Source: Clostridia bacterium
GTDB taxonomy: Bacteria > Bacillota > Clostridia > UMGS1840 > HGM11507
Direction of reading: 5' to 3'
DNA length: 26,576 nucleotides
Assembly: GCA_045539675.1 (NCBI GenBank)
Contig: JAZQFU010000167.1
Coordinates: 1-26,576 of the forward strand
Shown here: one piece after another, positions 6,939 through 25,649 of the stretch
How positions within the stretch are numbered: position 1 is the first letter of the stretch
Layout of the letters: each line of letters starts with the position of its first letter
Position numbers and translations under genes: made by a program
Notes under the pieces: model-generated
The model's database searches: none
What the model was told of the DNA's origin: nothing
What the model saw: the letters and a program-made list of their open reading frames with translations, nothing else

Positions 6939-6976
6939 AAAAGCTGTAAAAAACGCAGGTTTTTTACAGCTTTTTT
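6939..6976. terminator. Bidirectional intrinsic terminator between the convergent operons
   Basis: Perfect 16-bp inverted repeat AAAAGCTGTAAAAAAC (6939-6954) / GTTTTTTACAGCTTTT (6959-6974), 4-nt loop, with A/T tails on both sides. Confidence 0.9.
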
Positions 6977-8211: not shown

Positions 8212-8272
8212 AAAAAGCATCTCCCGTTTTTACGTTCCCGGCATCCTTCCGCTTGTCCGCTCATTTTTAAAA

Positions 8273-11200
8273 TTATTTACTCACCGGCTTTACAAGTAAA
8301 TAATACTGCCCGTCATTTATATCTCTTGTACCCGGGGTTTTCATTGTGACCTTCACAGACTTACCCTCAGGCACACTTACAGTTTTCATATAGATATCAT
8401 CATAAGCATATCGACCGGTCGGTCTCTCTACAATAAATACGGTTCCAAGCTTAAGCTTCTTCCATGTATCATCAATAAATTCAGGTGTGTTTCCGTAAGT
8501 TACAACATATAAATTCGCAGTTGTATTTAAGTTAAAGCTGTATAAATCAAAGCTTTTTCCGGAAAATGCCGGGTACTTATAGCCTTTCTCACTGCCAAGT
8601 CCGTAATAATATGCATTCTGCCATGCAACCGAACTTTCAGCATCTGAACCATATGCCGCGTAATTCATGCTCATGTTAGGCGGCAGATAACAACAGCCTT
8701 CAAGCTCCGCCAAATCATTAAGATACACAACCGGATAGTCTCTGTCTCCGTAGGCAACGGCACCCTCACCGAAATTATACTTCAGTTTCGGAGAACTGAT
8801 ATACCTTTTTGACGAGGTATCTGTACATCCTTCTTTTAAACCGGAGCTTAAACCGGAATATTCCCTTACCGACTGAGTTATATTCGTCACATATGCTTTT
8901 GCGTTGACATTGTAATTTATTGTAACGGTTCTCGTACTGCCGACCTGTGCAGTCAGGGTTATTGTTGTCTTCCTGCTGCTGCAATCCGTATTCACAACCA
9001 CCTTTGTGGAATTATCCGCCGCCACAGCTGTGACAGTCGGGTAAACAGAATACTGTGATATTTCAGCATTATATTCAGACTTTGAATCGTCAAAGTCTGA
9101 AATCAGTTCGCCGTCAAGGAAAATTCCCTTCAGGGCAGTACTGTTTGAATTATATACTGATGCCTGTGTAAGCGGTTTTCCGGAAGCTTTATCCCAGATA
9201 AAGGTTTTTATAAGTCCGTTGTCCGGCAAATTAACCGAAGCTTTAAGCAGTTTTGCGTTGCCTGCCGCTTCTTCAACTGAAGCAAGTCTTCCTTCGCTGT
9301 CGTAGCTGCAAACAAGCATGCTTACATTCTTACCGTTTGCATTATTTACAAATGCATTTGCAGTTACCCGGCCGATGCCAGAATATTTAACATAGGAATA
9401 AAAGTCAACAGCTCCTGCAGTATAGTATACCGTACCGCTTTTAATAATATTATTTTTAATTGCAGTTACCGTTATTTTATACTGTGCTTCAGCTTGTGAA
9501 ACTTCAAAGCTTAACGGAGCCGATACATTTTGATATACAGTATCATTTACAGTAACATTATAGCTGCAGCCGCTTACCTCGTTCCAGCTTACCTGAGCCA
9601 TAGCATCAGAGGTTTTATTTACAGCAATATTCTGCGGTATAATCGAATTTGCAGATAAAATACCGCTGTTACTGAGCAGAATATAATTTCCGCCTTCCGC
9701 ACTTAATTCAAGTGTTTCTCCGTCGAGCGAAGCATTTAAACCAATTGCACCGGAAATCTTTCTTCCTTTTTCGTCCTTTAAATCGGATACATTGCCGACA
9801 GTCAGATACTTATTTGCCGCATTAAGCGAAATATCACAGTCATCATCACAGCTCAGTGCAAGCTGACTGTTACCCATTGCAACAGTAACTGCTTCGTCCG
9901 AATTAATCAGAACATTTCCGTCAACTTCTAAGTAAGTACCGTTCGTAAGCATAACTGAATAGCTGTTTAATGCCACAGCTGTTCCGGAAAACTCAATATT
10001 TTCCGCAACGACGGTGTCACTTTCGCCCTTTAAGTTAACAAACACCTCTGTACCGTCCTCAAAGCTAAGCTTCATATAGCTTCCGTCGTCCGAATAGGTT
10101 GGTGTAATTTCCTTAGCAGCTGTTTCCCCTTCGTTGTAAACGTCCATTGTGACAACCATTTTTGCAGCACTGCATTTTTCTGTTGCAAAGGAAACTCTTT
10201 TATGCTCAGGGTAATCCGCATAAGAGCCTTCCGCAGGATAATAGGTTCCATTCGGTGCAGTAAAGCCATCATAATACTCCCGTATAACCGTTTCAGGATA
10301 CTGAACCTGCGCTTTAAGTCTTGCTGTGCCCTGCTTTATAACTGCGGAATTTTCCGCATTTTCAGGAATTTCAATAGCATTCTCCCCATTGAGCCACCAT
10401 TCAAAGACAGACGTACTGCCGGCTTTAGCCTTAAGATCGTCAATTACAACAAAAACATCAGGTCTTACATAAATGATACTTCTTTCAAATTTATCAAGCT
10501 TTCCGTTATATGCCTGCGTTGCATCGCCCGTCACACTATCAAAATCAATATGATTTACAAAAGCTTTTATACTTCCTTCAGCATTAAAGGAATTTAATTT
10601 CTGACCTGCTCCTCCGTCTGTTGTTATACTGTTGTTGGCAAAGGTCTGTCTGTGAATATTCTGTTCATGGGGCGAACCGAAAGCATCATAATATCCCGAG
10701 TGAATAGCTAAGTTTTCTCCAAAAGCAGAAATCAAAAATCCGTTATTATCCGAAAAGGAATGACTGTAAGTTCCGTACGGACTTGAACGGAAGGTAAGCT
10801 GCACTCTGTCGGAATCTTCAAGACTGCTTGTCATAACAGCCACACCTATATCACGGAATTCATGCGACAGCGGCAAATCCTTCGGAGACATACTTGCCAC
10901 ACTGTCCGACATATTCGCATAATAGTCGCTGAAATCATTTACACTTCCCATTCCCTTTGCATTTTCAGCATACCATTTTGCATAAGAATTTCCGGTGAAA
11001 TATGCCGTTCTTTTCATTCCTGCCGTTACCTGTGAATTGCTTTCAGACTTTTTTCTGCCCGCACCCTCGCCGAAGCCTCCGTATGAGCCTATAGGCCAGG
11101 CATAGGTTGTATAGAGATATTCATTCTGAAACCATGCTCTGTCATAGAAATTAACAACTCCGCCAAGTGCAAGAAGGTCAACAAAATCCTTATCTATCAG

Positions 11201-12676
11201 ACGGGAATTATAATAACCCGTTCCCTGTGCCCAGCCGCCGTCTTCATATGACCACGCAGGAATGTATGAAAAGGCTTCAATAGTATCACGAAGAAGCTTA
11301 TCGTAGCCTTCAATTTCTCCGTAGGTTGCATATGCAACTATTCCGGCATACATAAATCTTGTACCTTCATGGGAACCGTAAGGCATTTTTCTGTTATATT
11401 CCGGATAGATTGAAATAGGATCTGTTCTCTGCTTAATAACGGATAAAACCGTCGGTATCTCTGTATCAGCATCAAGCAAGCCGTAAATCCAGTCATAGGC
11501 TCTTGCCATACATATTGCAATAAGACGGTTTGCCTGAGTTGCTTTTTCCGCCGAGGTCGAACCCGCCGGATCCCATCCGGCAAGCTTTAAAAGCACCGTT
11601 TTAGCATATGCACCGATAGCAGCATCCTCTGTAAGCAAATATATAAAACTGCAAGCCATCAGCTGATCAGTCATTTTCTCAGATGCTTTATTGATATAAT
11701 TTGTATATTGAATTGACTGATAAGCATCTGAAGCACTTTCATCTATGCCTGCGTCCTCTTCGTTTGGATCATCGTAAAGCTTATTAGCCAAAACATAACC
11801 CTGAGCTTCAGCCAGATACTTTTCATACACAAGCTTTGAATATTCGTTTGTTTCCTTCAGCTTTCTGAATTCTTCCAGCTTTTCAGGTCTTGTGAATACT
11901 CTTGGATGTGAAGACGGTATTCTTGACATAATAGTATCAATATCCTCCATCACAGCCTCATAAGCATTCGTATCAATTCTGAACCTTCTCGCCTCCGACC
12001 ACTCACTTTGCCCGTCGTCAATAAAATATCTTACCGACCAGTAATACTGCACACCGGTCTCCAGAAGACAATCGGGGGTAAATACATTGATTTTAAGTCC
12101 ATCCCAATGATATTTTATATCACTGAGTGCTTCATCGCTGCATATTTTAAGCTCAAAGCTGTCTGCACCCTCCACAAAGGGCCAGGTAAAGCTCGGTGGA
12201 TTTTGCTGTGAAGCATACTTATCCTTAGGTCTGAAGTTCATTGCAAGTCCGTCGCTGCGCTGATAAACACAGTCCGAGTCCCAGTTATAACCCGAAACAT
12301 ACGGATCGTTGTTATAGGCTACTACTGCCGTTGCTGCTTCGTCAACGGCTTTTCCGCCCACAGTCACAGTATAATCCCCGAGAGGGGCGGTATCGTCTAA
12401 AGTGAGCGTTTTTTTATACTGCCCATCTTCACCACAAATTATCTGATCCATATACAACAGCATCCCTTTTGGATCAGTAATCGTAAGACTTATCTGGTTA
12501 TCTGAAAGTCCGTTGTCTATACTTCCGCGGACTGAAAGCATCTTCCCGTTTATATTTGCAGACAGCGATACGGTTTCAACACCCGCCGCAAACGATACCG
12601 GAAAAGCTGACATAAGTACAGCCGACGTAAGCATAAGACATATAATCTTTTTTATAAATTTTAACAAACTAATCAC
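8273..12676 (-). CDS. Secreted multimodular PL15-like polysaccharide lyase A: signal peptide, Ig-like module, DUF4962, heparinase II/III-like domain, Fn3-like, module X, cadherin-like, C-terminal domain Y
   Basis: Signal peptide ending VSFA. QNPPSFTW...NVFTPD...YYW and HPRVF (DUF4962/PL15 N-terminus), PYGSHE, DGGWAQGTGYY, FRSSPYGTYSHSFSDNNGF...GENLAIHSGYY. These resemble the PL15 motifs of Agrobacterium Atu3025 as I recall them. Alternative start: TTG 12667, 8 nt after an SD-like AGGGCG. Confidence 0.8.
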   Translation of the reverse strand: MISLLKFIKKIICLMLTSAVLMSAFPVSFAAGVETVSLSANINGKMLSVRGSIDNGLSDNQISLTITDPKGMLLYMDQIICGEDGQYKKTLTLDDTAPLGDYTVTVGGKAVDEAATAVVAYNNDPYVSGYNWDSDCVYQRSDGLAMNFRPKDKYASQQNPPSFTWPFVEGADSFELKICSDEALSDIKYHWDGLKINVFTPDCLLETGVQYYWSVRYFIDDGQSEWSEARRFRIDTNAYEAVMEDIDTIMSRIPSSHPRVFTRPEKLEEFRKLKETNEYSKLVYEKYLAEAQGYVLANKLYDDPNEEDAGIDESASDAYQSIQYTNYINKASEKMTDQLMACSFIYLLTEDAAIGAYAKTVLLKLAGWDPAGSTSAEKATQANRLIAICMARAYDWIYGLLDADTEIPTVLSVIKQRTDPISIYPEYNRKMPYGSHEGTRFMYAGIVAYATYGEIEGYDKLLRDTIEAFSYIPAWSYEDGGWAQGTGYYNSRLIDKDFVDLLALGGVVNFYDRAWFQNEYLYTTYAWPIGSYGGFGEGAGRKKSESNSQVTAGMKRTAYFTGNSYAKWYAENAKGMGSVNDFSDYYANMSDSVASMSPKDLPLSHEFRDIGVAVMTSSLEDSDRVQLTFRSSPYGTYSHSFSDNNGFLISAFGENLAIHSGYYDAFGSPHEQNIHRQTFANNSITTDGGAGQKLNSFNAEGSIKAFVNHIDFDSVTGDATQAYNGKLDKFERSIIYVRPDVFVVIDDLKAKAGSTSVFEWWLNGENAIEIPENAENSAVIKQGTARLKAQVQYPETVIREYYDGFTAPNGTYYPAEGSYADYPEHKRVSFATEKCSAAKMVVTMDVYNEGETAAKEITPTYSDDGSYMKLSFEDGTEVFVNLKGESDTVVAENIEFSGTAVALNSYSVMLTNGTYLEVDGNVLINSDEAVTVAMGNSQLALSCDDDCDISLNAANKYLTVGNVSDLKDEKGRKISGAIGLNASLDGETLELSAEGGNYILLSNSGILSANSIIPQNIAVNKTSDAMAQVSWNEVSGCSYNVTVNDTVYQNVSAPLSFEVSQAEAQYKITVTAIKNNIIKSGTVYYTAGAVDFYSYVKYSGIGRVTANAFVNNANGKNVSMLVCSYDSEGRLASVEEAAGNAKLLKASVNLPDNGLIKTFIWDKASGKPLTQASVYNSNSTALKGIFLDGELISDFDDSKSEYNAEISQYSVYPTVTAVAADNSTKVVVNTDCSSRKTTITLTAQVGSTRTVTINYNVNAKAYVTNITQSVREYSGLSSGLKEGCTDTSSKRYISSPKLKYNFGEGAVAYGDRDYPVVYLNDLAELEGCCYLPPNMSMNYAAYGSDAESSVAWQNAYYYGLGSEKGYKYPAFSGKSFDLYSFNLNTTANLYVVTYGNTPEFIDDTWKKLKLGTVFIVERPTGRYAYDDIYMKTVSVPEGKSVKVTMKTPGTRDINDGQYYLLVKPVSK

Positions 12677-12683
12677 GCCCTAA

Positions 12684-15600
12684 TTATCTTTTTAGAAGCA
12701 CAATCCAGTCATAGTTCCACGACCCCGAAACTACCTCAAAAGTGATTTCATAGGTTCCCGGCTCAAGCTCAAGTCCGCTGTCAGTAATCGCTGTATGCCA
12801 CTGCTCGGGAGTCGAACCGAATCCGTCGGTCTTGCGGTCAAGCCCGAATTCATAATCCTTACCGAGAATATTGAATGAACGAACCGACGTACCTTTATCA
12901 GAATCTGTGCTTATCCATGAAACATACTTAACAGCCAGGTCATATACGCCTGCTTCTTTAATTTCAATGTTATACTTTATCTGCGTACCGATATTATTAA
13001 AGCTTGAAATACCTTTACCTCCCGACAGGAAGGATCTTGTTGTATAGACTCTTGCTCCGTCAGCAATTTTGCCGGTATAATCCTCAGCCTCAACAAATAC
13101 CGATGCTCTGTTTCTTACAGCATCATAATCAGCCTCGTAGGTTGTATTAAGCTTTTTGGACTCTATAGATTCAAGCTTAATATAATTCACAGCGGAATCA
13201 GTACTTACATCAACGGTACTGAAGCCTCTTATATCCCCTATCTGATTTCCGGCAAAGTCAAGCTCTTTATTCTTTTCAACCACCTTGTATTTTTTCGAAG
13301 GAACAGATATCGCACCCTGGTAGTTAACAGAACCGTCACGCTTTGTATATCCTTTGATTTGGTATTTTTTCCGCTCTCCGTCAGCATCAACTGTAACCTC
13401 ACCCGTTACTTCTTCTGTTTTAAATTGCTTGCCGTTCAGCATAAGAGAATAATGTCCAAGCTCAGAAGTGAAGGTTACATAAGCCTCCGATTCTTCAACC
13501 GTGTATGATTTTTCTTCTTCGGATTTTTTTCCGGCTTCAGCCTCCTTTAATATACCTTTTTCATAGGAAATGCCGATTGCCGGTGAAAGCTCTCTGCCGT
13601 TATACTCTGTAACACTGTTAAGCCCGTCAATGTAATCATTATTTGTATTAACCGAAACTCTGTTGTCACATTCAGATGAGATACCAAGCTCATCCTTACC
13701 CATACATACAGATACAACACCTTCGGATTTTACAAGCTCTGTACCGTTTAAGATAAGTGATGTACCGTTAACAAGCATTACAGAATCATCATTATATACA
13801 ACTGCGTCACCGTTAAATACTATATCGCCTGCACTTACGGTTTCTGCAGAGTCTCCTGTGTTTACATACATAATTGTACCGTCTTCAAAGGTCATTTTTA
13901 TATAACCTTCAAAACATTCGGTATCAACATCACGTGCCGCAATATGATTCTGATGCACGTCAAGGGCTACAACAATTTTTGTTTCATTAGCCTTTTCTGT
14001 TTCAAACCATGCACGTCTGTGAACGGAAGAGTTTGCATAGCTGCCCTCAGGATTATACTCCTTCATTGTAGAGTTTGCCCAGATATCATTATAGAAGGTC
14101 TTTACATTCTTCGGATATTCAACGGAGACATCAAGAACCGCATTATTCTGCTGCAGTCTTACCCCGTTTCCGTTTTCATAAACACTTATATCATCCAGTG
14201 CATTAAGCCACCACTCAAACTTAGCGGTTTTGTTTTCGTTGTCAGATGCCTTAAGGTCATCAATAACAACAAAAATATCCGGTCTTATGTATACCACATT
14301 TCTTCTGAAGCGTCCAAGCTTTATCCCGCTGTAAGCCCGAGTTGCATCTCCGGTTAAAAGATCAAAGTCAACATGATTTAAAAAATTTGTTATCTTTCCC
14401 TTTGCCTCAATATCACTAAGATTCTGCCCCTTGCTGTTCGCTATGGTAACAGTATTGTTTGAGGTTGAGTTTCTGTAAATATTCTGTTCATGGGGCGAAC
14501 CGAAAGCATCATAATAGCCGCTGTGTATCAAAAGATTCTCTCCGAAGGCAGAAATCAGAATACCGTTATTATCCGAGAACGAATGGCTGTATGTTCCGTA
14601 CGGACTTGAACGGAAGGTAAGCTGTATTCTGTTCGGGTCAGTCAGATCATTTGTAAGATTTGCAACTCCGATATCCTTAAACACGTGTGAAAGCTGCAGC
14701 TCTGCAGGAGATTCTGATTTTACATCGGCGCTCATATTTGCATAATAATCGCTTATATCATCAATTGCCCACATTCCTGCAGAATTTTCTGCATACCATT
14801 TTGCATAAGGATTATTTGAAAAATACGCAGTTCTCTTCATTCCGTTTGTAAGATTGAAATCAGCAGAATGACGTCCAAGCCCTGCCCCCTCGCCGAAGCC
14901 GCCGTATGAGCCTATGGGAACAGCGTATGTTGTATAAAGATATTCATTCCGGTACCATGCTCTGTTATAGAAATTGACAACTCCGCCAAGGGCAAGAAGG
15001 TCAACAAAGTCCTTGTCTATCTGTCTGGAATTATAATATCCCACACCCTGCGACCAGCCTCCGTCTTCGTATGACCATGTAGGTACCATGGAAAATGATT
15101 CTATGGTATCGCGAAGAAGCTTTTCATAGCCTTCGATTTCCCCATAGGTTGCATATGCTACTATTCCGGCATACATATATCTCGTCCACTCGTGTGAACC
15201 GTAAGGATTTTCTCTGTTATATTCCGGATAAATCGAAATCGGGTCGGTTCTTTGCTTTATAACATTTAGTATTATCTTTTTGTCCTCTTCGCTGAACAAG
15301 TCATAAAGCCAGTCATAAGCTCTTGCCATACATATTGCAATCAGACGGTTTGCCTGAGTTGCTTTTTCAGGTGAGCTTGCACCGTTTACATCCCATTCCG
15401 AAAGCTTAAGCATAGCTTTTCTGCCGTATTCACCAATTTCCTTATCGCCGGAAATGAGATATACAAAGCCGCATGCCATAATCTGATCGGTCATATCGTT
15501 TGCAGCATCGTTTATATAGTTTGTATACTGTATACTCTGGACAGCAGAAGATGCATTCTTATCTATAACCGCATTTTCCGCATTTGCGTCTCCGTACAGA

Positions 15601-16208
15601 TTTCCTTCCTGAACGTATTTTAAAGCATCCTCCAAATATTTCTCATATACTCTCTTTGAATATTGATTTGTATCCTTAAGGCTTCTGAATTCTTCAAGCT
15701 TTTCGGGAGTTGTGAATACTCTCGGATGAGAAGAAGGAATTCTTGCCATAATGGTATCAATGTCATCCATTACAGCCTCGTGAGCATCCGGATCTATTCT
15801 TAAACGCCTTGGCTCTGACCATTCACCGGGTTTGCCCTTAATATAGTATCTTACCGCCCAATAATAAGTCACTCCGGTTTCGAGAGTATGACCGGGAGTG
15901 TAAAGATTGAGCTTAATACCCTCCCACTTATATTTCACATCGGTAAGTGCCTCATCTCCGCAAAGAATGAGATCAAAGCTTTCGGCTGCCTCAACGTATG
16001 GCCATGTAAAGCTTGTCGGATTCTGCACCGATACATATTTATCCTCGGGTCTGAAACCCCTTTTATACTTTCCCAGACTCACATATTCGGAGGTCCAGTT
16101 ATATTCCCCGGAAGCTGCAGCATATGAAAAAAACGGCATCGTACCTGCAGCCATACTAAGAATAATGCAAAGAGAAACCAACCTTTTTAAACTTCTTCTA
16201 AATTCCAT
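12684..16208 (-). CDS. Secreted PL15-like polysaccharide lyase B: signal peptide, DUF4962, heparinase II/III-like domain, C-terminal CBM6/CBM35-like domain, 1174 aa
   Basis: GGAGG RBS and signal peptide. Same lyase motifs as lyase A (QNPTSFTWP, PYGSHE, DGGWSQGVGYY, FRSSPYGTYSHSFSDNNG). The C-terminal VEAEDY...YDLAVKY...GTYEITF...NYDWI is typical of CBM6/35 galactose-binding-like folds. Confidence 0.8.
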   Translation of the reverse strand: MEFRRSLKRLVSLCIILSMAAGTMPFFSYAAASGEYNWTSEYVSLGKYKRGFRPEDKYVSVQNPTSFTWPYVEAAESFDLILCGDEALTDVKYKWEGIKLNLYTPGHTLETGVTYYWAVRYYIKGKPGEWSEPRRLRIDPDAHEAVMDDIDTIMARIPSSHPRVFTTPEKLEEFRSLKDTNQYSKRVYEKYLEDALKYVQEGNLYGDANAENAVIDKNASSAVQSIQYTNYINDAANDMTDQIMACGFVYLISGDKEIGEYGRKAMLKLSEWDVNGASSPEKATQANRLIAICMARAYDWLYDLFSEEDKKIILNVIKQRTDPISIYPEYNRENPYGSHEWTRYMYAGIVAYATYGEIEGYEKLLRDTIESFSMVPTWSYEDGGWSQGVGYYNSRQIDKDFVDLLALGGVVNFYNRAWYRNEYLYTTYAVPIGSYGGFGEGAGLGRHSADFNLTNGMKRTAYFSNNPYAKWYAENSAGMWAIDDISDYYANMSADVKSESPAELQLSHVFKDIGVANLTNDLTDPNRIQLTFRSSPYGTYSHSFSDNNGILISAFGENLLIHSGYYDAFGSPHEQNIYRNSTSNNTVTIANSKGQNLSDIEAKGKITNFLNHVDFDLLTGDATRAYSGIKLGRFRRNVVYIRPDIFVVIDDLKASDNENKTAKFEWWLNALDDISVYENGNGVRLQQNNAVLDVSVEYPKNVKTFYNDIWANSTMKEYNPEGSYANSSVHRRAWFETEKANETKIVVALDVHQNHIAARDVDTECFEGYIKMTFEDGTIMYVNTGDSAETVSAGDIVFNGDAVVYNDDSVMLVNGTSLILNGTELVKSEGVVSVCMGKDELGISSECDNRVSVNTNNDYIDGLNSVTEYNGRELSPAIGISYEKGILKEAEAGKKSEEEKSYTVEESEAYVTFTSELGHYSLMLNGKQFKTEEVTGEVTVDADGERKKYQIKGYTKRDGSVNYQGAISVPSKKYKVVEKNKELDFAGNQIGDIRGFSTVDVSTDSAVNYIKLESIESKKLNTTYEADYDAVRNRASVFVEAEDYTGKIADGARVYTTRSFLSGGKGISSFNNIGTQIKYNIEIKEAGVYDLAVKYVSWISTDSDKGTSVRSFNILGKDYEFGLDRKTDGFGSTPEQWHTAITDSGLELEPGTYEITFEVVSGSWNYDWIVLLKR

Positions 16209-17409: not shown

Positions 17410-17422
17410 ACTCACGCCCTCC

Positions 17423-20224
17423 TTATTCTATAATATATACGCCGTAAGCCCGCCCGTAATATGTCTGAATAGCTATTCTTGAGCACTCATTTCCTACGTC
17501 TTTATATGCCTTCAGATCGCCAAAGCTTGCGCCTGATACCGTCAGATTACCGCTTGCAAACTTCATAAGCTTCGCATAATATCCGACCTCTTGCCTTGTG
17601 GTAACAAACTTACAGTCCGCATGGGTTACATTCTGAAGAACGCTTCTGTCCTTCTCATTTGTAACGTAAATCATATATCCGTCATCAAAGGTATCGTAAA
17701 CATACCCGTATACCACAATTGTAGCACTGGTATAGAAATTGTATGTATCACTCTTTACAATGGTATCGGTGCTCTGCTTGTAATACAGAGTTATCCTTTC
17801 AACATATCCTTTAATGTTTACGTAATACCGTATAGCATCACCTGTTTTCAGAGTGTCTGCCGAAAGCTGCTCGGTATTTCCCTCTGAATCCGTTACGGAA
17901 TAGGTTGTTCCCGGCTTGATCTTCATCTTTCTTTCGCCGTTATTGTCTACAACCGTAACACAGACAACTGCATCGTTATAGTTATCATCCCATACCTTTG
18001 ATACTTTCTTAACCACCGCAATACGTGAGCCATCGGCACCTACAAAGCCGTCGGGATACGAAATAATATCCGCTGTCATGGACTCTGTATTTGTATAAAA
18101 TGCGTTCAGAGTCATTAAAGTGCCTGAAGCAAGAGAGTCATATGCTGTTCCGCACATATATGAATCCGTATCGTTCATACCTACGGGATTAGTAATGCTC
18201 GGATGCATAATAACCGGCGTCTCCTTCTTCATTGCAACCTGAGGCCCGCAGGTGTAATAGGTTCTTGAATAGTAGGAGTTACCCGAATTTACCATAAACA
18301 GCATATCGTCATTATCTGTGCTGTCTCCTCTTACTGCTGCAATGGCTTTTTTTCCGTCTATCAGCGTATCAATTGCAATTATTTCACCGTTTGCATTAAG
18401 CTTATATCTGACAATTGAAGAATAACAATCATCGGGTGCAACACTTCCCATCATAACCTTTGAAGCCTCATTAAGTCTTGCAAGCACTAACGGACTATCG
18501 GCTTTATATGTGCCGCCATCAAGTATAATATTCTCCGCCGCCTCAAATACAGTAAAATTGTCGCCGGCATCATACATTTTAAATACCAGCTTATTCTGCA
18601 AATCCTTTGTTTCAGGTGCAGCTTTGACAATAAAACCGTATACATATTCGGTTTCGGTTGCATAAACAAGATATGAAATCCTTCCCTCCACATCCGTAAA
18701 AGCCTTTACATAATTACCAAGGTTAAGCTTTTCTTTTTCGATAATGCGGCATTCCTCATTAACACGATACTCTTTGCCGTCTATAGTCACATACTCATTG
18801 TCATCTCTTGTTTGTTCTATCTTTCCGGTGACGGCGCCGTCAAGTATATAAATACGTACATACTGCTGATATGCGTCAGCTGCCGAATGATAAACCGAAA
18901 CAACTGTATTCGCAGAAATTTCGCTTATATCTGTTTCCTCACCCTTGGCATCATACACAATTGTGTATGGATCGTTCGCGTTAACATCAACCATAAGCTT
19001 ACGGCTTGGATTGTACTTGTCGTAAATATATTGATTGTTTTTATCCACGTGAGAAACAACAAAATTCTCGTATGCATCAACAAAGACAACGTCATATTTT
19101 CCGTCCTTTGAATTATCAATAAGACGGATTGCGCCATGCTTCTTCGTTGTGTAGGTAATTCCGTTTTTTGTGCAGGAAGTCTTTATCATATCCATGGAAA
19201 GTGCTTCCCTGGTTGAAGCACCATTGTAGATAACGGGCGCACCGTTCTTAAAGGAATATGATTTGGACTTATTGGCAGCATCATCCCAGTATTCAAGCTT
19301 TGTTCCGCTTATATTTTCGATATCATCAATATCAACGGTGATTTCCACGTTATCATCCGATTTCTGAATGTATGCCACCTTCGGAAGCTTGTCTCTTTCC
19401 TCCACATAATACATATCAACAAGATAACCGAGATAACTGTATATATTTTCTATTCCCCTGCATTCAAGCTCCAGCTCGCCAACCTGAATCCAGAAGGGAT
19501 TAATATCGTTTTTGCCGACAAGTCTTGTAAGGTCAACGCCGTTCACAACATCCTTTAAATGCTTCATATGAAAAACGGTATCTAAAAATGTTCCCACCTC
19601 AACAAGACTGTAGTCTGCATCAGGGCCGTAAGTATCCTGCCCGATAAGCGGAATTTCAAGAGAATTGAAGATAAGCTGTGCCGCCATTCCCTTAGTAAGT
19701 GCTGTTTTCATATCTATATCGAGAGATGTATACATTTTAAGAAGCTTTGCACAAAGGTAATAGCCGCTCGGAAAACCGCCCCTGCTTTCAGCCGCAAAGC
19801 TGTAGCCGGCAATCTTCAATATAACTGCTGATGCCTCAATAAGACTGATATTTTCATCAGCAAGTATATTTCCGTTCGGATCGCCGCCTATTGCTCCGAA
19901 CTTTGTCAGCGTTTTTATGTATTGCTCAAATTCATGCCCGGGAATTAAATCTTTGTATATTATTTCGGAGCTTACCGTTCCGCTGTATCCCGCCAGAATG
20001 CAGGCAAGTTTGAAAAACTCGCCTCTCGTAATCCCTTCGGTAAGATTTTCTTCGGTATACTCCGTTATTCCGATAGCATTCGTAATGCCGAGAGCTTCTT
20101 TTCCGTATATTACTTTTTCCTCTTCTTCCTCTGCTAATACAGGGCAGAAGCTTAAAAGCAATGCTATTGATAAAATACAGGATATTATTCTTTTCAAAGC
20201 CATCTGATTGATCAATCCTTTCAT
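17423..20224 (-). CDS. S-layer-like protein with N-terminal degenerate SLH repeats and a large beta-rich body
   Basis: Signal peptide (MALKRIISCILSIALLLSFCPVLA; possible start ATG 20203). SLH-like segments ITRGEFFKL, YKDLIPGHEFEQYIKTLTKFGAIGGDPNG, ISLIEASAVILKIAGY and LTKGMAAQLIFNSL. The overall layout matches clostridial S-layer proteins. Confidence 0.7.
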   Translation of the reverse strand: MKGLINQMALKRIISCILSIALLLSFCPVLAEEEEEKVIYGKEALGITNAIGITEYTEENLTEGITRGEFFKLACILAGYSGTVSSEIIYKDLIPGHEFEQYIKTLTKFGAIGGDPNGNILADENISLIEASAVILKIAGYSFAAESRGGFPSGYYLCAKLLKMYTSLDIDMKTALTKGMAAQLIFNSLEIPLIGQDTYGPDADYSLVEVGTFLDTVFHMKHLKDVVNGVDLTRLVGKNDINPFWIQVGELELECRGIENIYSYLGYLVDMYYVEERDKLPKVAYIQKSDDNVEITVDIDDIENISGTKLEYWDDAANKSKSYSFKNGAPVIYNGASTREALSMDMIKTSCTKNGITYTTKKHGAIRLIDNSKDGKYDVVFVDAYENFVVSHVDKNNQYIYDKYNPSRKLMVDVNANDPYTIVYDAKGEETDISEISANTVVSVYHSAADAYQQYVRIYILDGAVTGKIEQTRDDNEYVTIDGKEYRVNEECRIIEKEKLNLGNYVKAFTDVEGRISYLVYATETEYVYGFIVKAAPETKDLQNKLVFKMYDAGDNFTVFEAAENIILDGGTYKADSPLVLARLNEASKVMMGSVAPDDCYSSIVRYKLNANGEIIAIDTLIDGKKAIAAVRGDSTDNDDMLFMVNSGNSYYSRTYYTCGPQVAMKKETPVIMHPSITNPVGMNDTDSYMCGTAYDSLASGTLMTLNAFYTNTESMTADIISYPDGFVGADGSRIAVVKKVSKVWDDNYNDAVVCVTVVDNNGERKMKIKPGTTYSVTDSEGNTEQLSADTLKTGDAIRYYVNIKGYVERITLYYKQSTDTIVKSDTYNFYTSATIVVYGYVYDTFDDGYMIYVTNEKDRSVLQNVTHADCKFVTTRQEVGYYAKLMKFASGNLTVSGASFGDLKAYKDVGNECSRIAIQTYYGRAYGVYIIE

Positions 20225-20276
20225 TTTTGCATCTGAAATTGCGTACCATCAGGAACAGAAGGCACGAAAGACTGCA

Positions 20277-22052
20277 TTATTCCGCAATCAAAGTATATAT
20301 AATCTTTGCCGCCTCGGCTCTTGTGCAATTAGCCTTCGGCTCAAATTTACCTTCGCCCTTGCCTGAAAGAACTCCTGCGTTTTTAAGTGCATATACAGCT
20401 TCCTTGGCATAATCGGAAATTGCCGCGTTATCCGCGAACTCTCCGCTTATTTCTGCATTGAGCTCCCTGCCGTTTGCCTGTGCGATTCTGTAAGCCATAA
20501 CAGCAGCATCCTCACGGGTGATTGCATTGCCGATACCGAACGTGCCGTCCGGATTTCCTTTAACAAAACCTGACTTCTTTGCCGCAGTAATATAAGGAGC
20601 ATACCATTCGCCCGCTATCGTATCAGTAAACTCGGCATTGCCTTCGCCAAGCTCAACCTTGTAAGCTCTCAGGAGCATTGTCAGCATTTCTTCACGGGTT
20701 ACATTTCTTGAAGGCTCAAATTTGCCCCCTCCGGTTCCGCTTACTATACCGTCATCTGCAAGTGCAGCAATACTTGCCTTTGCCCAGTCAAAGCCTGCCA
20801 GATCGCTGAACTTATCCTCAGGCTCAGTCACGGGAGTAATCGGCTGAGTTATATTCATACCGGTGCCTACGCTCAATCCGCGTCCGCCACCGCCGCCGGA
20901 GCTGCCTGAGCCACTGGGCCTTAAGGCAGTTTCTTTTAAAAGGGCTGCCATTTTCTCGTTAACCGCTTTAGAAAACCCATTCACAGTTTCGTAGCTGTTT
21001 TCAAGCACATATGTATAAAGCTGTGATTTCTTTGTTGTTGTCATCCCTGCAGAGTTAAAGCTACTCATAAGTATTCCGCTTTCCTCACCAAAGCTTGTGA
21101 TGAAGTATTCAACATCTCCCCAGGAATCAGCCCCCGTGCAGAGTGCTGTCAGAACACCCTTTGCATACGCTTCCTTCGCAGCCTCCGCCGTCAGATGGTT
21201 TTTTCCCTTGAAATAGTTTGCAGTAAAGGTATTTTTCTCGTTTACGCTGAGCTTTTCAGTGTAAGCATTTACGTATTTTTCATCATATCCAAGTGCTTCC
21301 TTTTCATCTGCCGCATCTATAAGTCCCTCATTAATTCCTTCAAGCTTTGCAGCAAACGTCAAAGAATCAATCATCGAGCCTATATCAGCCGCAACCTTGG
21401 AAAGTCCTTCCTCTGTTAAAACAAGCTCTGCAATTTCATCCTCACTCAAGTCCTCTACGTTCCAGCTTTTGCCCTTTACCGATTTATATAAGGCTTCGTA
21501 TAAAAGTGCCTTGTCTGATACCTTGTAAATCATATCGGAGGTATCAATAAGAGTAAGCATTTTCATTGCGGCACTGGGCTCATCTGACGTGCTTCCGATT
21601 GCCAAAAGCTCTGCAAGGCCTGTTTTCGCTGCCGGAAGCTCTCCTTCGCAAAGCTTTACCGCTTTGGCAATCAAAACCGCTTTTTGCTGAGCCGTGGCAT
21701 AGAAAATTCTGCCCTTTTCACTGCCGTTTATTCTTACCGTAATATCGCCCGGTTCAACGCCGTCGAGACTTGCGGAAAACATACGCTCACCGTTTGAATC
21801 GGCAGGCTCCTGCGCCATAAGAATAAAATCCGAAAGTATATCTTCTCTTGTATAAGTAGTTTTTATTTCTTTTCCGGGTTTCAAAAGCTGAATGCTTATG
21901 CTTTCGTTTTTCTCAGCTCCGTTTACCGTTACCAAAATCGTCTTTGCCGCATCATCAACGCTGTACTGATATGATACTGCCGCAAGACAAGGAGTTGTCA
22001 TAGCAAAAGCAGACACTGCCAGGGCTAAAATTGTTCTGATGGTTTTTTTCAT
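20277..22052 (-). CDS. SLH-domain cell-surface protein (Ig-like module, helical region, Gly/Ser linker, 3 SLH repeats), 591 aa
   Basis: Signal peptide and GGAGG RBS. Linker SGSGSSGGGGG. Three SLH repeats: FSDL..FDWA...GIVSG...TREE, FTD...WYAPY...GFVKG...TRED and FAD...DYAKEAV...GVLSG...TRAE. Confidence 0.92.
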   Translation of the reverse strand: MKKTIRTILALAVSAFAMTTPCLAAVSYQYSVDDAAKTILVTVNGAEKNESISIQLLKPGKEIKTTYTREDILSDFILMAQEPADSNGERMFSASLDGVEPGDITVRINGSEKGRIFYATAQQKAVLIAKAVKLCEGELPAAKTGLAELLAIGSTSDEPSAAMKMLTLIDTSDMIYKVSDKALLYEALYKSVKGKSWNVEDLSEDEIAELVLTEEGLSKVAADIGSMIDSLTFAAKLEGINEGLIDAADEKEALGYDEKYVNAYTEKLSVNEKNTFTANYFKGKNHLTAEAAKEAYAKGVLTALCTGADSWGDVEYFITSFGEESGILMSSFNSAGMTTTKKSQLYTYVLENSYETVNGFSKAVNEKMAALLKETALRPSGSGSSGGGGGRGLSVGTGMNITQPITPVTEPEDKFSDLAGFDWAKASIAALADDGIVSGTGGGKFEPSRNVTREEMLTMLLRAYKVELGEGNAEFTDTIAGEWYAPYITAAKKSGFVKGNPDGTFGIGNAITREDAAVMAYRIAQANGRELNAEISGEFADNAAISDYAKEAVYALKNAGVLSGKGEGKFEPKANCTRAEAAKIIYTLIAE

Positions 22053-22091
22053 AATATTCCCTCCGCAAAGATAGTTTTTAAATCACCAATA

Positions 22092-22147
22092 GTTGATTTT
22101 TGCATGAGTTTTTAAGAATTCTCCCCGAAACTCATATAAAAATCAAC
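22092..22147 (-). other. Long intergenic stem-loop (candidate mRNA processing/stability element)
   Basis: GTTGATTTTT (22092-22101) pairs with AAAAATCAAC (22138-22147), and ATGAGTTT (22104-22111) pairs with AAACTCAT (22128-22135). There is a 2x2 internal loop and a 16-nt terminal loop. Confidence 0.7.
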
Positions 22148-22152
22148 CATTC

Positions 22153-22181
22153 TGCCGGGGGGCTTTAATAACCCCCCCGCA
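22153..22181 (-). other. GC-rich intergenic stem-loop without a U-tract (stability element or weak terminator)
   Basis: The minus strand reads TGCGGGGGGG-TTATTAAAG-CCCCCCGGCA (one mismatch), 16 nt after the stop at 22198. It is followed by GAATGG, not poly-U. Confidence 0.6.
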
Positions 22182-22197
22182 TTACGGATAAAAAATT

Positions 22198-24408
22198 TTA
22201 ATTTACAGGCTTTGCAAAAACTATAGGGTATGCGTTACTTTTAACAGTTCTTATAGTAACGGTATCACCTTTTTTTACATTCTTTATATACCAAATCCAT
22301 CTGGATTCAACGGCACTTGCAGCTGAGAAAACCAAATTCTCTAAAGGTACTGCTGCTAATTTTGTCCAGCCATCGGCTGTAATCCATGCATTTGTAGTTG
22401 CTGTAGCCAATATCAATTCTGCATCATTACCTGCTTCAAAGGTATAGAATATATACTGACCGTCTGTGTTACGGTAACCATATGAGTCATAACCATTTCT
22501 TATACCGTAATCCAGTGCAATAAATTCTGCTCCTTCAAGCTCCATAACCTCCGGATAAGAAATAACTGCTCCTCTCTGAGGCTTTGACGGATCAGTCCAG
22601 CCTTTGAACTCTCCCTGGTATGTATATAAACTTGAATTGTTGCTAAATACACCTTTTGATGCAGAAACATTTTTAGTGTTATATGCTGCAAATTCAGCTC
22701 CGAGTTTAAGGTTCTTTATCAAGCCTGCTTCAGACTCCATAACTATTTTTGCAAGAATCTCCTCATACGAAAGACCTTGCAAGCTTACATCTCCGGTATA
22801 TTTAATCTTCGTATTTATTTTTTGGAATTTTGATTGTATAAATGGATTAACTTTATTTTCCACAGCGTTCCATGTGAGATAATAATTGCCCTTTTCGATG
22901 TCTGAATAATCAGCTATATCTTCGTTACCGATAACTCCCTGTGCCACAAGATATGCCCAGAAATCATATGAGCCGGAATCGAAACAAACACCTATCATTC
23001 TTGAGTTCGGATAATCCGATGCGTTAGTCAGTTTTGTTGCCGTAACCTCTCCGTTTTCATCCTTGAGCTTTATAGCCTGAGTACAAAAAGCTGTAACCTC
23101 AACGCTCTGATTTACCCAAAAAGACAATTTTCCGCTTGTATTGCCGGCGGGAACAACTATATAATTATATCCTGTGTAAGCTTCCGGCATATCAAAAATA
23201 TGTTTACCGACGGTACTTGCATTTCTGTCTGTTGCTATAAGTGTTCCCGTAATATCATCATTATTGGTATCCATAGTTTCGGGGAACACGGGAAGAGGAC
23301 TTGTTTTAGTGCCCGCAGTAAATTCTACCGGCGTAGTTTTGCTTGAGTCACCGACTTCACCGTTGCCGATATAATATGCCGGGGCGCTATAAAGTAAATA
23401 ATCATCCCATTCAAGTGCGGTTCCGTCGGCATTAACAACTACATCTCTGTCTGCACTGACGGTAGGCTTAATAACAAATATCTGTCTTAATGTTCTTCCG
23501 TTCGAAAACTCAAGCTCTATCTTTTTCAGTTCACCCTCACCAACTGTATAGCTTTTTGTTGCTTTATAATTGTATGGTTCAAGTGTAACGAAAGAAGCGC
23601 CTGTAGCTGCAAATTCATTTTCTTTTATATATCCTTCCAAATCCGGTTCTGTATATGTGATTTTAAAGGTTTTTGTTACAGGCTTCGAATACACCTTTCC
23701 CGGTGTATTTGCAACATTGGAGGTTCTTTCGGCTTCTGATCTCTGACCGATTTCAACGGTTATTTCAGTAGTTTTAGAGGATTCGAAATCATTTACCACT
23801 TTAACGCTTGCAGTGTTATCGGCATAGCCTGCTAATTTTGCAGTTACTGCCGGATACGAAACAGTCCCGTTGGAAACTGTCAGCTTCTTTGTATATTCTA
23901 TGGTATCCCAGCTGAATTCCTCGCCGATATAGTCCTCAAATGACTGACCGTCAAAAGTAATTTCAAGCTTTGCATCAGTAAGGCTTTCTGCACCGAAGGT
24001 AGCAACATTTGAGACAATCTTCTGGTTGCTTTCCTCCCATATGAAAGCCTTTGCGGTGTAGCCGTCTTCCATTTCAACCCAGTCTGTTCTTACAACGGTA
24101 TTTACACCTGATGCCGTTTCAACCTTGACAAGCTTCTTGTCGGCATCATAGACTGCGCAGTAAAGGACTGCTTTTTCATCTGCCGAGGTATAGTTTCTGA
24201 TAAATGCTTCTGCTCTGATGTAATCCTGAGTTTCGCCTGTTGGATTGCCGTTTTCATCTTCCAATTCAACTGTTGTTTCCTTGAATACAACATGGGAGCT
24301 TAAAAATTCTGATTCTGCTGCAAAAATGGTGGGGAACACAGAAATCATAACAGAAGATACTACAAGCAACGCCAACAAAATTTTTAATGTTTTTTTGGTT
24401 TTTTTCAT
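22198..24408 (-). CDS. Secreted non-catalytic modular protein (module X, cadherin-like, two Y-like domains), about 736 aa
   Basis: Start ATG 24408, 7 nt after AAGGAGA; signal peptide ending IFA. Motifs VYDADKKLVKV...AKAFIWE and YPAVTA...DNTASVKVVN...KTTEITV, with C-terminal LEGAEFI...YTFEAG...ADGWTKL. No catalytic motif recognised. Confidence 0.75.
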   Translation of the reverse strand: MKKTKKTLKILLALLVVSSVMISVFPTIFAAESEFLSSHVVFKETTVELEDENGNPTGETQDYIRAEAFIRNYTSADEKAVLYCAVYDADKKLVKVETASGVNTVVRTDWVEMEDGYTAKAFIWEESNQKIVSNVATFGAESLTDAKLEITFDGQSFEDYIGEEFSWDTIEYTKKLTVSNGTVSYPAVTAKLAGYADNTASVKVVNDFESSKTTEITVEIGQRSEAERTSNVANTPGKVYSKPVTKTFKITYTEPDLEGYIKENEFAATGASFVTLEPYNYKATKSYTVGEGELKKIELEFSNGRTLRQIFVIKPTVSADRDVVVNADGTALEWDDYLLYSAPAYYIGNGEVGDSSKTTPVEFTAGTKTSPLPVFPETMDTNNDDITGTLIATDRNASTVGKHIFDMPEAYTGYNYIVVPAGNTSGKLSFWVNQSVEVTAFCTQAIKLKDENGEVTATKLTNASDYPNSRMIGVCFDSGSYDFWAYLVAQGVIGNEDIADYSDIEKGNYYLTWNAVENKVNPFIQSKFQKINTKIKYTGDVSLQGLSYEEILAKIVMESEAGLIKNLKLGAEFAAYNTKNVSASKGVFSNNSSLYTYQGEFKGWTDPSKPQRGAVISYPEVMELEGAEFIALDYGIRNGYDSYGYRNTDGQYIFYTFEAGNDAELILATATTNAWITADGWTKLAAVPLENLVFSAASAVESRWIWYIKNVKKGDTVTIRTVKSNAYPIVFAKPVN

Positions 24409-24485
24409 TTTCTTCTCTCCTTGCATTTTAATTATATATTAAAAGCCGTACTCAGCCTTTATGCAGAATTAAATTTCAGTCCGTT

Positions 24486-25649
24486 TTACTCCGTATATCC
24501 GTCATAAACGATTACATGAATATAACCTCTGCTTTGTGCAACATTGGGACTTGTTACAGTAACCGATTCGTCACCGACTTCAATATGCTTTGAATATTTT
24601 GTATTAAATTTCTTATCATCAACGGTAGAGATGCCGTCGCCGGATACTTTTGTATAACCCCACCTTTCATCCGCCATAGCCACGGACCCGGCTTCAAGCA
24701 ACACATAAACCGTTGCACTTCTGTTAAGCTCAAAGCCCAACCAGTCTTTGTAATCAGATGACATCCACGCCTGCACATATTGCTTACCATCTCCGCCATT
24801 TTTCCAGGCAAAGGCGGTCTGTAAGTAATCACAGCCCACAAAGGATTCATCCGAAATCGTTCCTACGTAAAATTCTCTGTCCAGTACAATCTTCGAGCCA
24901 ACCTGCAAATTTTGCTTCAAAGCAGGTAAAAATGCAGCTCCATCTGTAAAAGACTGCATAAATCTGACGTTTTCTACAAGGGGTTTATCGCTTTTATACT
25001 TAACTGTATAGATTTTTTCATCGCCGTCAACCGATGTTACCTTTATAACGGTTTTTCCGGGGAAGGTTACCGGATCTGTTATTTCTACCTTAGCACCGCT
25101 GTCAAGAGTTTTCACCGAAACCTCAGGGCAGGCTTTTCTGGTCGATGCAACCGTATACTCGTATTCATATATTTCACTGTCAAAGCCTTCAATTGCAACA
25201 CCATCTACCGTCAGCTCAACCACATCGCTGCTGCCCCCCGGCAAAAGTGAGGAATTACAAACCGGAGTCATTCCGCTTATGCTGCTCCATAAAACTGTGT
25301 TTATCCTGCAGTTTTCGGCATTCTGCGGAACGGTAACGCTTACGGAAAATTCAGTTTCCTCTGTTCCCGCTGTTTTTTCTTCAATGCCTACATCAATAAG
25401 CTTTCCTCCGTCATATAAAAGCATAACAAAAGCCATACTTTCAGCCTCAGAGCCATCTGCAATTTTCACATCGATTTTCGCAGTAAGCTCTCCGCCGCTG
25501 AGAGTTGTGGTTTCTCCTTCTGCATTTGTATATGTAATCTGCGAATACTCATACTTTTCTTCCAGGGCAAAAGCTGAAAGCATAAAACATATACTCATAC
25601 ACAGAACAAGAATTGCTGCTTTTAATAAAGTGCTTTTAATTTTGTTCAT
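24486..25649 (-). CDS. Secreted non-catalytic modular protein (module X, cadherin-like, domain Y), 387 aa
   Basis: Signal peptide ending SAFA and AAAGGA RBS. Motifs LYDGGKLIDV...TVLWS, VELTVDGVAIEGFDSEIYEY...PEVSV (cadherin-like beta-sandwich) and LKQNL..G....DR...GCDYL...GFELNRSATVYV. Confidence 0.75.
   Translation of the reverse strand: MNKIKSTLLKAAILVLCMSICFMLSAFALEEKYEYSQITYTNAEGETTTLSGGELTAKIDVKIADGSEAESMAFVMLLYDGGKLIDVGIEEKTAGTEETEFSVSVTVPQNAENCRINTVLWSSISGMTPVCNSSLLPGGSSDVVELTVDGVAIEGFDSEIYEYEYTVASTRKACPEVSVKTLDSGAKVEITDPVTFPGKTVIKVTSVDGDEKIYTVKYKSDKPLVENVRFMQSFTDGAAFLPALKQNLQVGSKIVLDREFYVGTISDESFVGCDYLQTAFAWKNGGDGKQYVQAWMSSDYKDWLGFELNRSATVYVLLEAGSVAMADERWGYTKVSGDGISTVDDKKFNTKYSKHIEVGDESVTVTSPNVAQSRGYIHVIVYDGYTE

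Follow-up and report, generated by a model that had tools for sequence, protein, structure and literature searches.

A repeated gene cassette of uncultured gut Clostridia combines paired non-catalytic SLH proteins with secreted PL15-like lyases

Introduction

Far less is known about how gut Firmicutes capture glycans than about the Sus-like systems of Bacteroidota or the cellulosome. In Gram-positive bacteria, a polysaccharide utilization locus (PUL) unites enzyme, transporter and regulator in one locus. In this work we analyzed a locus of an uncultured Clostridia bacterium in which seven consecutive genes encode secreted proteins, among them two lyases that resemble polysaccharide lyase (PL) family 15 and two non-catalytic proteins with S-layer homology (SLH) domains. 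The stretch studied, hereafter called the window, comprises 26,576 nucleotides and is the entire contig C167 (JAZQFU010000167.1, assembly GCA_045539675.1) of a 2.27-Mb metagenome-assembled genome (MAG) with 342 contigs, 97% completeness and 1.6% contamination.

Carbohydrate-active enzymes (CAZymes) displayed by SLH domains are known from Cel5I of Ruminiclostridium cellulolyticum (PMC4976890) and Xyn10B of C. lactoaceticus (PMC6556019). Another domain found in the present locus, Cu_amine_oxidN1 (PF07833, abbreviated CuAO), precedes cohesin in the cell-surface proteins OlpC and ScaG (PMC3413522). PF07833 also is the homodimerization domain of a Paenibacillus lautus CuZnSOD with an N-terminal signal sequence (PMC10432803), and it was found in the Desulfotomaculum surface proteome (PMC4137172).

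In the locus described here, the SLH triplets lie on two dedicated non-catalytic proteins and PF07833 on a third, lectin-like protein. In the literature outside subscription journals, we found no description of this cassette among work on SLH domains with heparinase or PL15 enzymes or on Gram-positive PULs, and it seems to represent a Gram-positive mode of polysaccharide harvesting at the cell surface that has so far not been described. We think it somewhat probable that the locus belongs to a family of PUL-like operons, present in multiple copies in uncultured gut Clostridia, that encode a wall platform, adaptors and lyases.

Results

A paralogous family of cassettes within one genome

The locus belongs to a large family of paralogues with PUL-like features, namely an AraC-type regulator, an intracellular glycoside hydrolase (GH) of family 3 and a CN-hydrolase. 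Between positions 8273 and 25649, seven co-oriented open reading frames (ORFs) on the minus strand encode, in order, 387, 742, 591, 933, 405, 1174 and 1467 amino acids and are named by these lengths. Together with the flanking genes and the terminator they are:

25689..26576, minus strand: GH3 glycosidase, 3' part (Pfam Glyco_hydro_3, 4e-19), 39-nt gap to g387, probable first operon gene
24486..25649, minus strand: g387, secreted non-catalytic modular protein with signal peptide, no Pfam family, homologous to the g1467 tail
22198..24426, minus strand: g742, secreted non-catalytic protein with signal peptide, no Pfam family, sharing N-terminal modules of the g1467 tail
20277..22052, minus strand: g591, C-terminal SLH triplet (Pfam SLH x3, 5e-35), predicted to be wall-anchored
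17423..20224, minus strand: g933, S-layer-like with N-terminal SLH triplet by AlphaFold2 fold, one weak Pfam SLH match (2e-4)
16198..17415, minus strand: g405, lectin-like jelly roll (45-250, AlphaFold2 fold) and Cu_amine_oxidN1 (284-393, PF07833, 2e-14), candidate adaptor
12684..16208, minus strand: g1174, secreted PL15-like lyase (DUF4962 4e-31, Hepar_II_III_C 1e-15) with tail L1174C (residues 901-1173)
8273..12676, minus strand: g1467, secreted PL15-like lyase (DUF4962 3e-31, Hepar_II_III_C 7e-18) with g387-type tail
7021..8220, minus strand: g399, CN-hydrolase (PF00795, 8e-25), 52-nt gap from g1467, last gene of the unit
6939..6974, minus strand: intrinsic-terminator-like hairpin with 16-bp stem, 4-nt loop and U-rich tail, located where the CN-hydrolase and ABC-exporter genes converge

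Hidden Markov models built from the window's own domains were searched against all ORFs of the MAG and returned, with about half of the ORFs cut by contig ends, 42 lyase, 45 G933-like, 24 G591 N-domain, 27 PF07833, 19 g387-module, 16 CN-hydrolase and 91 SLH-bearing ORFs. Their arrangement is directional. On the same strand, a G591-like gene directly precedes a G933-like gene in 13 cases and another SLH gene does so in 4. From G933 the next gene leads to a PF07833 protein (5 cases), a protein with the lectin domain only (2) or a lyase with fused PF07833 (2), and lyases directly follow PF07833 proteins (8) or g387-like proteins (5). In most cassettes the g591- and g933-type genes are encoded as a pair. 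The order SLH protein, G933, lectin/CuAO protein and lyase is found on more than 20 contigs of this genome, and contig C220 shows the exact window order of SLH protein, G933, lectin/PF07833 protein, lyase and CN-hydrolase. CN-hydrolase paralogues often stand at one cassette end (contigs C112, C252, C339, C220, C125, C149, C60, C146, C72, C189 and C136); on C189 the cassette starts with a divergent AraC gene and a CN-hydrolase.

The paralogues within the genome are 22-59% identical and therefore are old copies, not strain variants. When 12 G591-like/G933-like pairs are compared, the similarity matrix of the G591-like partners correlates with that of the G933-like partners (r 0.74, Mantel p<=0.0002), from which it follows that the pair duplicated and diverged as a unit. 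The enzymes that accompany it vary. Contig C94 (L037:4534-13033) encodes two heparinase-II-like enzymes (HepII_C and Hepar_II_III_C), one with an F5/8 type C domain and the second with Cu_amine_oxidN1 and an InlB B-repeat, which adjoin a G591-like/G933-like pair and a g387-like protein. The cassette on contig C206 (L041:1225-18139) is composed of a GDSL esterase, an SLH protein (1147 aa), a Laminin_G_3 protein (1138 aa), a G591-like SLH protein (940 aa), a G933-like protein (865 aa) and a second Laminin_G_3 protein (1117 aa). It contains no lyase, and the SLH pair therefore serves other enzymes, too.

With 342 contigs, many of them cut inside cassette genes, and with a sheep-gut contig that joins two lyase genes, the amplification might be taken for a binning or strain-mixture artefact of a fragmented MAG. 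We regard this as extremely improbable. The paralogue identities are far below strain variation, and on this ground a mixture of strains was rejected; contamination is estimated at 1.6%, and in better-assembled relatives (30-100 contigs) the number of scored G933 copies reaches about 20 and that of DUF4962 matches 8.

Conservation of the cassette in other genomes

All 8 genomes of the same family and all 16 of a second family in the order encode relatives of G933, whose distribution across the class is patchy. DUF4962 matches number 26 in this MAG and 1-8 in the members of its family; most other genomes have none. Five same-family genomes keep the order of SLH protein, G933, lectin/PF07833 protein and lyase with L1174C tail. 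In a Hadza human gut assembly and in another metagenome, orthologous loci keep the full order with two lyases each; the Hadza locus has an ABC sugar importer (solute-binding protein and two permeases) upstream, and the second metagenome locus (L033) ends in a fusion of AP_endonuc_2 and CN_hydrolase.

A scan of species-representative genomes with a 9-sequence G933 alignment returned 48 loci, whereas the same scan with the g933 sequence alone returned no loci. The 48 loci come from MAGs labelled uncultured Oscillospiraceae or Clostridia, Ructibacterium or Ca. Ornithomonoglobus, with human, deer and rabbit samples among their sources. When the two metagenome loci are added, the gene directly upstream of G933 encodes an SLH protein in 36 of 52 cases, and the order from SLH through lectin/PF07833 to lyase occurs in about 12 of 50 loci, from at least 7 MAGs. 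In distant families, G933 stands beside an SLH-bearing GH141-like enzyme with GH88, or beside a protein with a carbohydrate-binding module of family 9 (CBM9) with ABC importer, GH39 and GH106-like enzyme. We conclude that in this class G933 generally accompanies glycan-utilization loci and that the version with lyases expanded at the family level.

The strict order and pairing persist across paralogues and genera with about 25-35% sequence identity. In the relatives, on whose gene order the first-pass annotation of this DNA, made from the sequence alone, had staked its proposal of a surface lyase assembly, the genes are hence in order and not scattered. DNA of the window was found in sheep, bovine and other animal gut metagenomes. 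Members of the lineage have small genomes of about 1.3-3 Mb and inhabit the guts of humans (Hadza), ruminants, deer, rabbits and birds.

Predicted folds of the non-catalytic proteins

The AlphaFold2 model of g933 (pLDDT 82.9) contains a complete SLH trimer at residues 40-192, with VIA Z scores of 18.5 to the SLH domain of SpaA and 16.7 to that of Sap, and a Foldseek TM score of 0.82 to 6cwl. The first-pass annotation had called these domains degenerate; by fold they form a complete triplet, despite the single weak Pfam repeat. The remaining residues, about 740, are modelled as a chain of small OB/DUF5666-like beta-barrels. This body has no solved counterpart, its matches in AFDB clusters are uncharacterized SLH, S-layer or DUF5666 proteins, and no Pfam family other than SLH was found in 77 g933 homologues. 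As modelled, the architecture of an SLH triplet followed by an all-beta multidomain body fits an S-layer protein, and the earlier suggestion that the 933-residue protein is part of an accessory S-layer agrees with the predicted fold. A CsaB-like pyruvyl transferase, the type of enzyme needed for a pyruvylated wall polymer, is encoded in the genome (PF04230 on contig C56, E 2e-37).

For the partner g591, Pfam confirmed the three canonical SLH repeats that had been read from the sequence, as it did for the Cu-amine-oxidase-N domain of g405. The N-terminal region of g591 (residues 26-400) is unannotated and common to 24 ORFs of the genome; TREE/TRAE motifs lie at positions 452 and 577. The g405 model (pLDDT 90.1) shows a ConA/legume-lectin-like jelly roll at residues 45-250. 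Here the closest match is the accessory domain of BT_1020 (5mqs 413-614, VIA Z 20.3), followed at Z 15-16 by lectins, CBM-like domains and a phage carbohydrate-binding module; Foldseek returned legume lectins, and a sequence search of the PDB gave no match. Even at E<=5, no Pfam family was assigned to g387, g742 or the N-terminal domains of g405 and g591. ESM Atlas look-ups of g742, the g591 N-terminal region and g387 found no named relatives; g742 led to unnamed Bacillota clusters.

The classical S-layer architecture of G933 raises the question of whether the cassettes serve envelope variation or remodelling. G933 and G591 paralogues would then be alternative S-layer proteins, and the heparinase-like enzymes would cut anionic wall or capsule polymers of the cell itself or of its competitors instead of food. 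This would fit with several order-level relatives in which G933 occurs alone, away from CAZymes (L028-L030), and with the frequency of PF07833 in cell-wall hydrolases (PMC4137172). Nevertheless, we judge it improbable. The cassettes comprise AraC sugar-type regulators, intracellular GH3, CN-hydrolase and CBM35-like and lectin-like modules, those of relatives ABC sugar importers and GH88, GH39 and GH106-like genes, and the lyase expansion (26 DUF4962 matches versus 0-8 in relatives) looks like nutrient specialization.

The two PL15-like lyases

The lyases g1174 and g1467 are 59% identical over 858 aa. Both have DUF4962 and Hepar_II_III_C domains, corresponding to the alpha/alpha toroid and beta-sheet of the PL15 architecture, and their best solved relative is the PL15 exo-oligoalginate lyase Atu3025 (3a0o, E 4e-47), followed by 6lja (E 2e-32). 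In the alignment, H311, Y365 and H531 of Atu3025 correspond to H339, Y391 and H542 of g1174, with the numbering fixed by 3afl, the H531A variant of Atu3025; in g1467 the motifs PYGSHE, GYYNS and YSHSFSD are found at positions 432, 487 and 637. The catalytic His/Tyr/His residues thus are conserved in both lyases, each of which has Phe in place of the second His of SHSH. In precomputed annotation, PF16332 also bears the name DSE-like_N, where DSE stands for dermatan-sulfate epimerase. Beta-elimination on a uronate polymer is predicted for the two enzymes, and an epimerase activity is conceivable.

Beyond the catalytic part, g1467 starts with an Ig-like module (weak MG2 match), and both lyases end in tails for which Pfam, searched up to E<=5, gave nothing usable except a CBM_35 match of L1174C below the cut-off (E 0.002); for the g1467 tail, a PDB sequence search was likewise without match. 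The first-pass annotation had noted modules common to enzymes and non-enzymes, and this holds: residues 1102-1410 of the g1467 tail match g387 (24.5% identity over 322 aa, E 1e-11, shuffle z 20.5), and residues 1104-1271 match residues 70-255 of g742 (E 2e-8, shuffle z 12.9). Judged by this alignment, g387 is a free-standing version of the g1467 tail. Positions of about 65-190 of the g387 model recur as repeated Ig-like units in other proteins, and in a relative (G006) g387-type modules are found on the SLH partner.

Also as noted before, neither lyase has a recognizable anchor. SLH, Cu_amine_oxidN1, LPxTG and a late transmembrane segment were all not found in the two proteins. SLH and lyase do not occur in one ORF among the 42 lyase ORFs of the genome, and PF00395 was found in none of 52 homologues.

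One sheep-gut contig runs from position 10405 over 27 letters of different sequence to 14253 and leaves out 3847 nt of the window. The two positions are equivalent places of the tandem lyases, and the junction stems either from another strain in which recombination left a single lyase or from chimeric assembly.

Domain mobility and the question of assembly

PF07833 was found in four placements. It occurs in a separate lectin-PF07833 gene upstream of the lyase, as in the window; as part of the lyase itself where that gene is missing (C5, C322, C80, L024, L062); in a fusion of G405-like domain, CuAO and SLHx3 (P0136); and at the N-terminus of G933-type SLH proteins (L075:6909-11978, L078:3154-7995) in deer-caecum and other MAGs. 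Downstream of the latter genes lie one or two BNR/Sortilin-Vps10-type genes with C-terminal PF07833 (Pfam 1e-35 to 2e-39), a domain pair that presumably resembles GH74 enzymes. This domain shuffling supports, at sequence level, a common localization role for Cu_amine_oxidN1. The movement of the CuAO domain among adaptor, lyases, other enzymes and G933 is what one would expect of a docking module.

The L1174C tail goes along with the lectin/CuAO gene, which lies directly upstream of 19 of 21 lyases with this tail versus 1 of 15 without it (Fisher p 4e-7, a value inflated by shared ancestry, as kin are not independent). Five lyases with fused CuAO have neither the tail nor the lectin/CuAO gene. 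Three patterns, the mobility of PF07833, the link between lectin gene and tail, and the g387 and g742 modules in the g1467 tail, go beyond co-regulation.

The most economical rival explanation, next to which envelope remodelling is weaker, is an ordinary co-regulated Gram-positive polysaccharide operon, in which lyases and small modular proteins are released, SLH proteins are bound to the wall independently and the shared modules are Ig-like spacers or CBMs. We consider it possible, if rather doubtful. It agrees with the lack of SLH and CuAO in g1174 and g1467 and of SLH in all 52 lyase homologues, with the recurrence of part of the g387 model as Ig-like repeats elsewhere, and with AraC, GH3 and the ABC importers of relatives, all typical PUL features; furthermore, cassette-wide duplication alone could yield the adjacency statistics. 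Yet unanchored g387, g742 and g405 would diffuse away with little gain for the cell, and it is hard to see the use of secreted non-catalytic binding proteins without an anchor if the cell does not retain them, which is an argument and not a measurement. The strict order and pairing at low sequence identity also speak against simple release, as does the alternation of CuAO between separate gene, lyase fusion and G933 fusion, with a G405 homologue that gained SLH.

Transcription unit and neighboring genes

The intergenic gaps from g387 through g1467 are, in order, 59, 145, 52, 7, -11 and 7 nt. In a heuristic assessment, all seven proteins have signal peptides with basic n-region, hydrophobic core (12-residue Kyte-Doolittle maximum 2.2-3.0) and AxA-type cleavage site. 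ORF map and signal peptide scan thus bear out the seven adjacent, co-oriented secreted genes of the first-pass annotation. Its statement that no canonical terminator precedes position 6939 is sustained, too: the hairpin at 6939-6974 is the only convincing terminator, with an RNA folding free energy of -26.8 kcal/mol (z -4.98) that none of 200 shuffles reached. Consensus promoter and terminator scans of the locus were at chance level.

The seven genes probably are only part of the unit, which extends upstream to GH3 and downstream to the CN-hydrolase. The 5' part of the GH3 gene is found on contig C134 of the same MAG (GH3 N-terminus match, 4e-46). This join is based on an exact overlap, as reverse-complemented C134 contains the final 120 nt of the window. 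On C134, a protein with Cupin_2 and HTH_18/HTH_AraC is encoded on the opposite strand, divergent from the GH3 gene. At the other end, g399 has an extra N-terminal domain of about 130 aa; a hydrophobic N-terminus was not found and it has no signal peptide, and its role would hence be intracellular. One guess is the de-amidation or de-acylation of released sugar acids.

Pfam and motif scans of the window proteins agree with the earlier statement that no dockerin, cohesin, LPxTG or C-terminal transmembrane anchor is visible. A heuristic scan of the seven proteins found no later transmembrane segment and no LPxTG motif, and sortase anchoring was rejected on the missing motif. Cohesin (PF00963) was matched neither anywhere in the 97%-complete MAG nor in the window proteins, and a cellulosome was rejected for this reason; Dockerin_1 was absent from the window proteins, with two dockerin-like matches genome-wide on other contigs. 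SusC (TonB-dependent transporter) and SusD Pfam families were not found among the window proteins.

On the plus strand, a second, complete GH3 gene with an Fn3-like domain (1412-3424) and two half-transporter ABC exporter genes (3440-6935, ABC_membrane and ABC_tran) converge on the operon terminator.

Discussion

In the PUL-like operon that we favor, the divergent AraC-type regulator probably controls a nine-gene unit of GH3, g387, g742, g591, g933, g405, two lyases and CN-hydrolase, of which Sec would export the seven middle products. The proteins g591 and g933 may be held on the wall polymer by their SLH domains and form a joint non-catalytic surface platform, with g405, g387 and g742 as accessory binding or adaptor proteins. 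Near the cell, the two PL15-like lyases would depolymerize a uronic-acid-containing polysaccharide. Each lyase tail could have a stand-alone partner, the CBM35-like g1174 tail being matched with g405 and the g1467 tail with g387 and g742. The products would then be imported and finished inside by GH3 and CN-hydrolase.

Several points weigh against this reading. The two lyases, lacking SLH and CuAO, could be released. The g405 fold is common to GH16, PL7 and PL14 enzymes, and g405 could thus be catalytic; as the window's g933 has no CuAO domain, there is also no evident partner for the CuAO domain of g405. No sugar importer is encoded in the window, where the ABC genes are of exporter type and on the opposite strand. 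The sole evidence for transcription is one 233-nt contig of a gut metatranscriptome, which lies in g933. Duplication of whole cassettes, and not selection on contacts, may largely account for the statistical associations, and all genomes concerned are MAGs, the present one in 342 contigs. The analysis establishes gene content, folds, conserved order, amplification and domain shuffling. Lyase tethering, protein–protein contacts, sugar binding, co-transcription, wall anchoring and the substrate are what we infer here. Of the polysaccharide-capturing surface layer proposed in the first-pass annotation, the conserved order and the non-cellulosomal nature stand, the accessory S-layer agrees with the predicted fold, and the tethered lyases retain the status of an inference. 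The locus is not a one-off invention.

We may further speculate that PF07833 acts as a dockerin-like "handshake" module. G933/G591 SLH pairs would be wall scaffolds on which PL15-like, heparinase-II-like and BNR/Sortilin-type enzymes dock, either by fused PF07833 or via a lectin-PF07833 adaptor that recognizes the enzyme tail. This would be a third, cohesin-independent Gram-positive multi-enzyme architecture with tens of substrate-specific versions per genome, like Sus pairs. We put it forward tentatively and think it unlikely as a whole.

In any case, small genomes devote a large share to one repeated unit around a pair of non-enzymes that are predicted to be wall-anchored. If the cassette forms a physical apparatus, an SLH protein followed by G933 would be a genomic hallmark for Gram-positive PULs. 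The G933 body and the G405 lectin domain, both large unannotated families, and the widespread PF07833 would gain a role. It would also point to many uncharacterized PL15-like enzymes, presumably with differing specificities for acidic polysaccharides. Even without a complex, the expansion of lyase and SLH genes marks a specialist degrader of uronate-containing glycans.

Among known systems, the display of enzymes by SLH domains in Clostridia, Paenibacillus and Caldicellulosiruptor shares with this locus the non-covalent SLH anchoring, the presence of a CsaB-like transferase and the non-cellulosomal enzymes. There, the enzyme bears the SLH domains. In contrast, SLH triplets are found here on two dedicated non-catalytic proteins that form a fixed pair, and not on a catalytic protein. 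Like Sap and EA1 of B. anthracis and SpaA of P. alvei, g933 combines an N-terminal SLH triplet with a multidomain all-beta body; unlike these, which are encoded by one or two genes for abundant lattice proteins, it has 45 paralogous ORFs, located inside enzyme operons. Cell-surface proteins that hold enzymes, OlpC of C. thermocellum and ScaG of A. cellulolyticus (PMC3413522), also have a CuAO-type domain. However, cohesin was not found here, and PF07833 lies on enzymes and adaptors in this genome and on the SLH scaffold in relatives. The lyases share DUF4962, Hepar_II_III_C and the conserved residues His311/Tyr365/His531 with PL15 Atu3025 (3a0o/3afl) and the "heparinase II/III-like protein" 6lja, but differ from them in being secreted, in their size of 1174-1467 aa, in the extra N- and C-terminal modules and in the Phe at the second His of SHSH.

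As for Gram-positive PULs, enzymes (two PL15-like lyases and GH3) and, via C134, a regulator are found, whereas a carbohydrate transporter was not found in the locus. With Bacteroidota PULs and utilisomes (PMC7618045) the locus has in common the many paralogous loci, a conserved non-catalytic surface pair, whose members co-diverge here, and binding proteins, enzymes and a regulator. Unlike those, it has no outer membrane, TonB-dependent transporter or SusD, its SLH anchoring is unrelated, uptake would be by ABC importers, and it is known from genes. By analogy, the locus would thus work most like SLH enzyme display combined with the logic of a Bacteroidota PUL.

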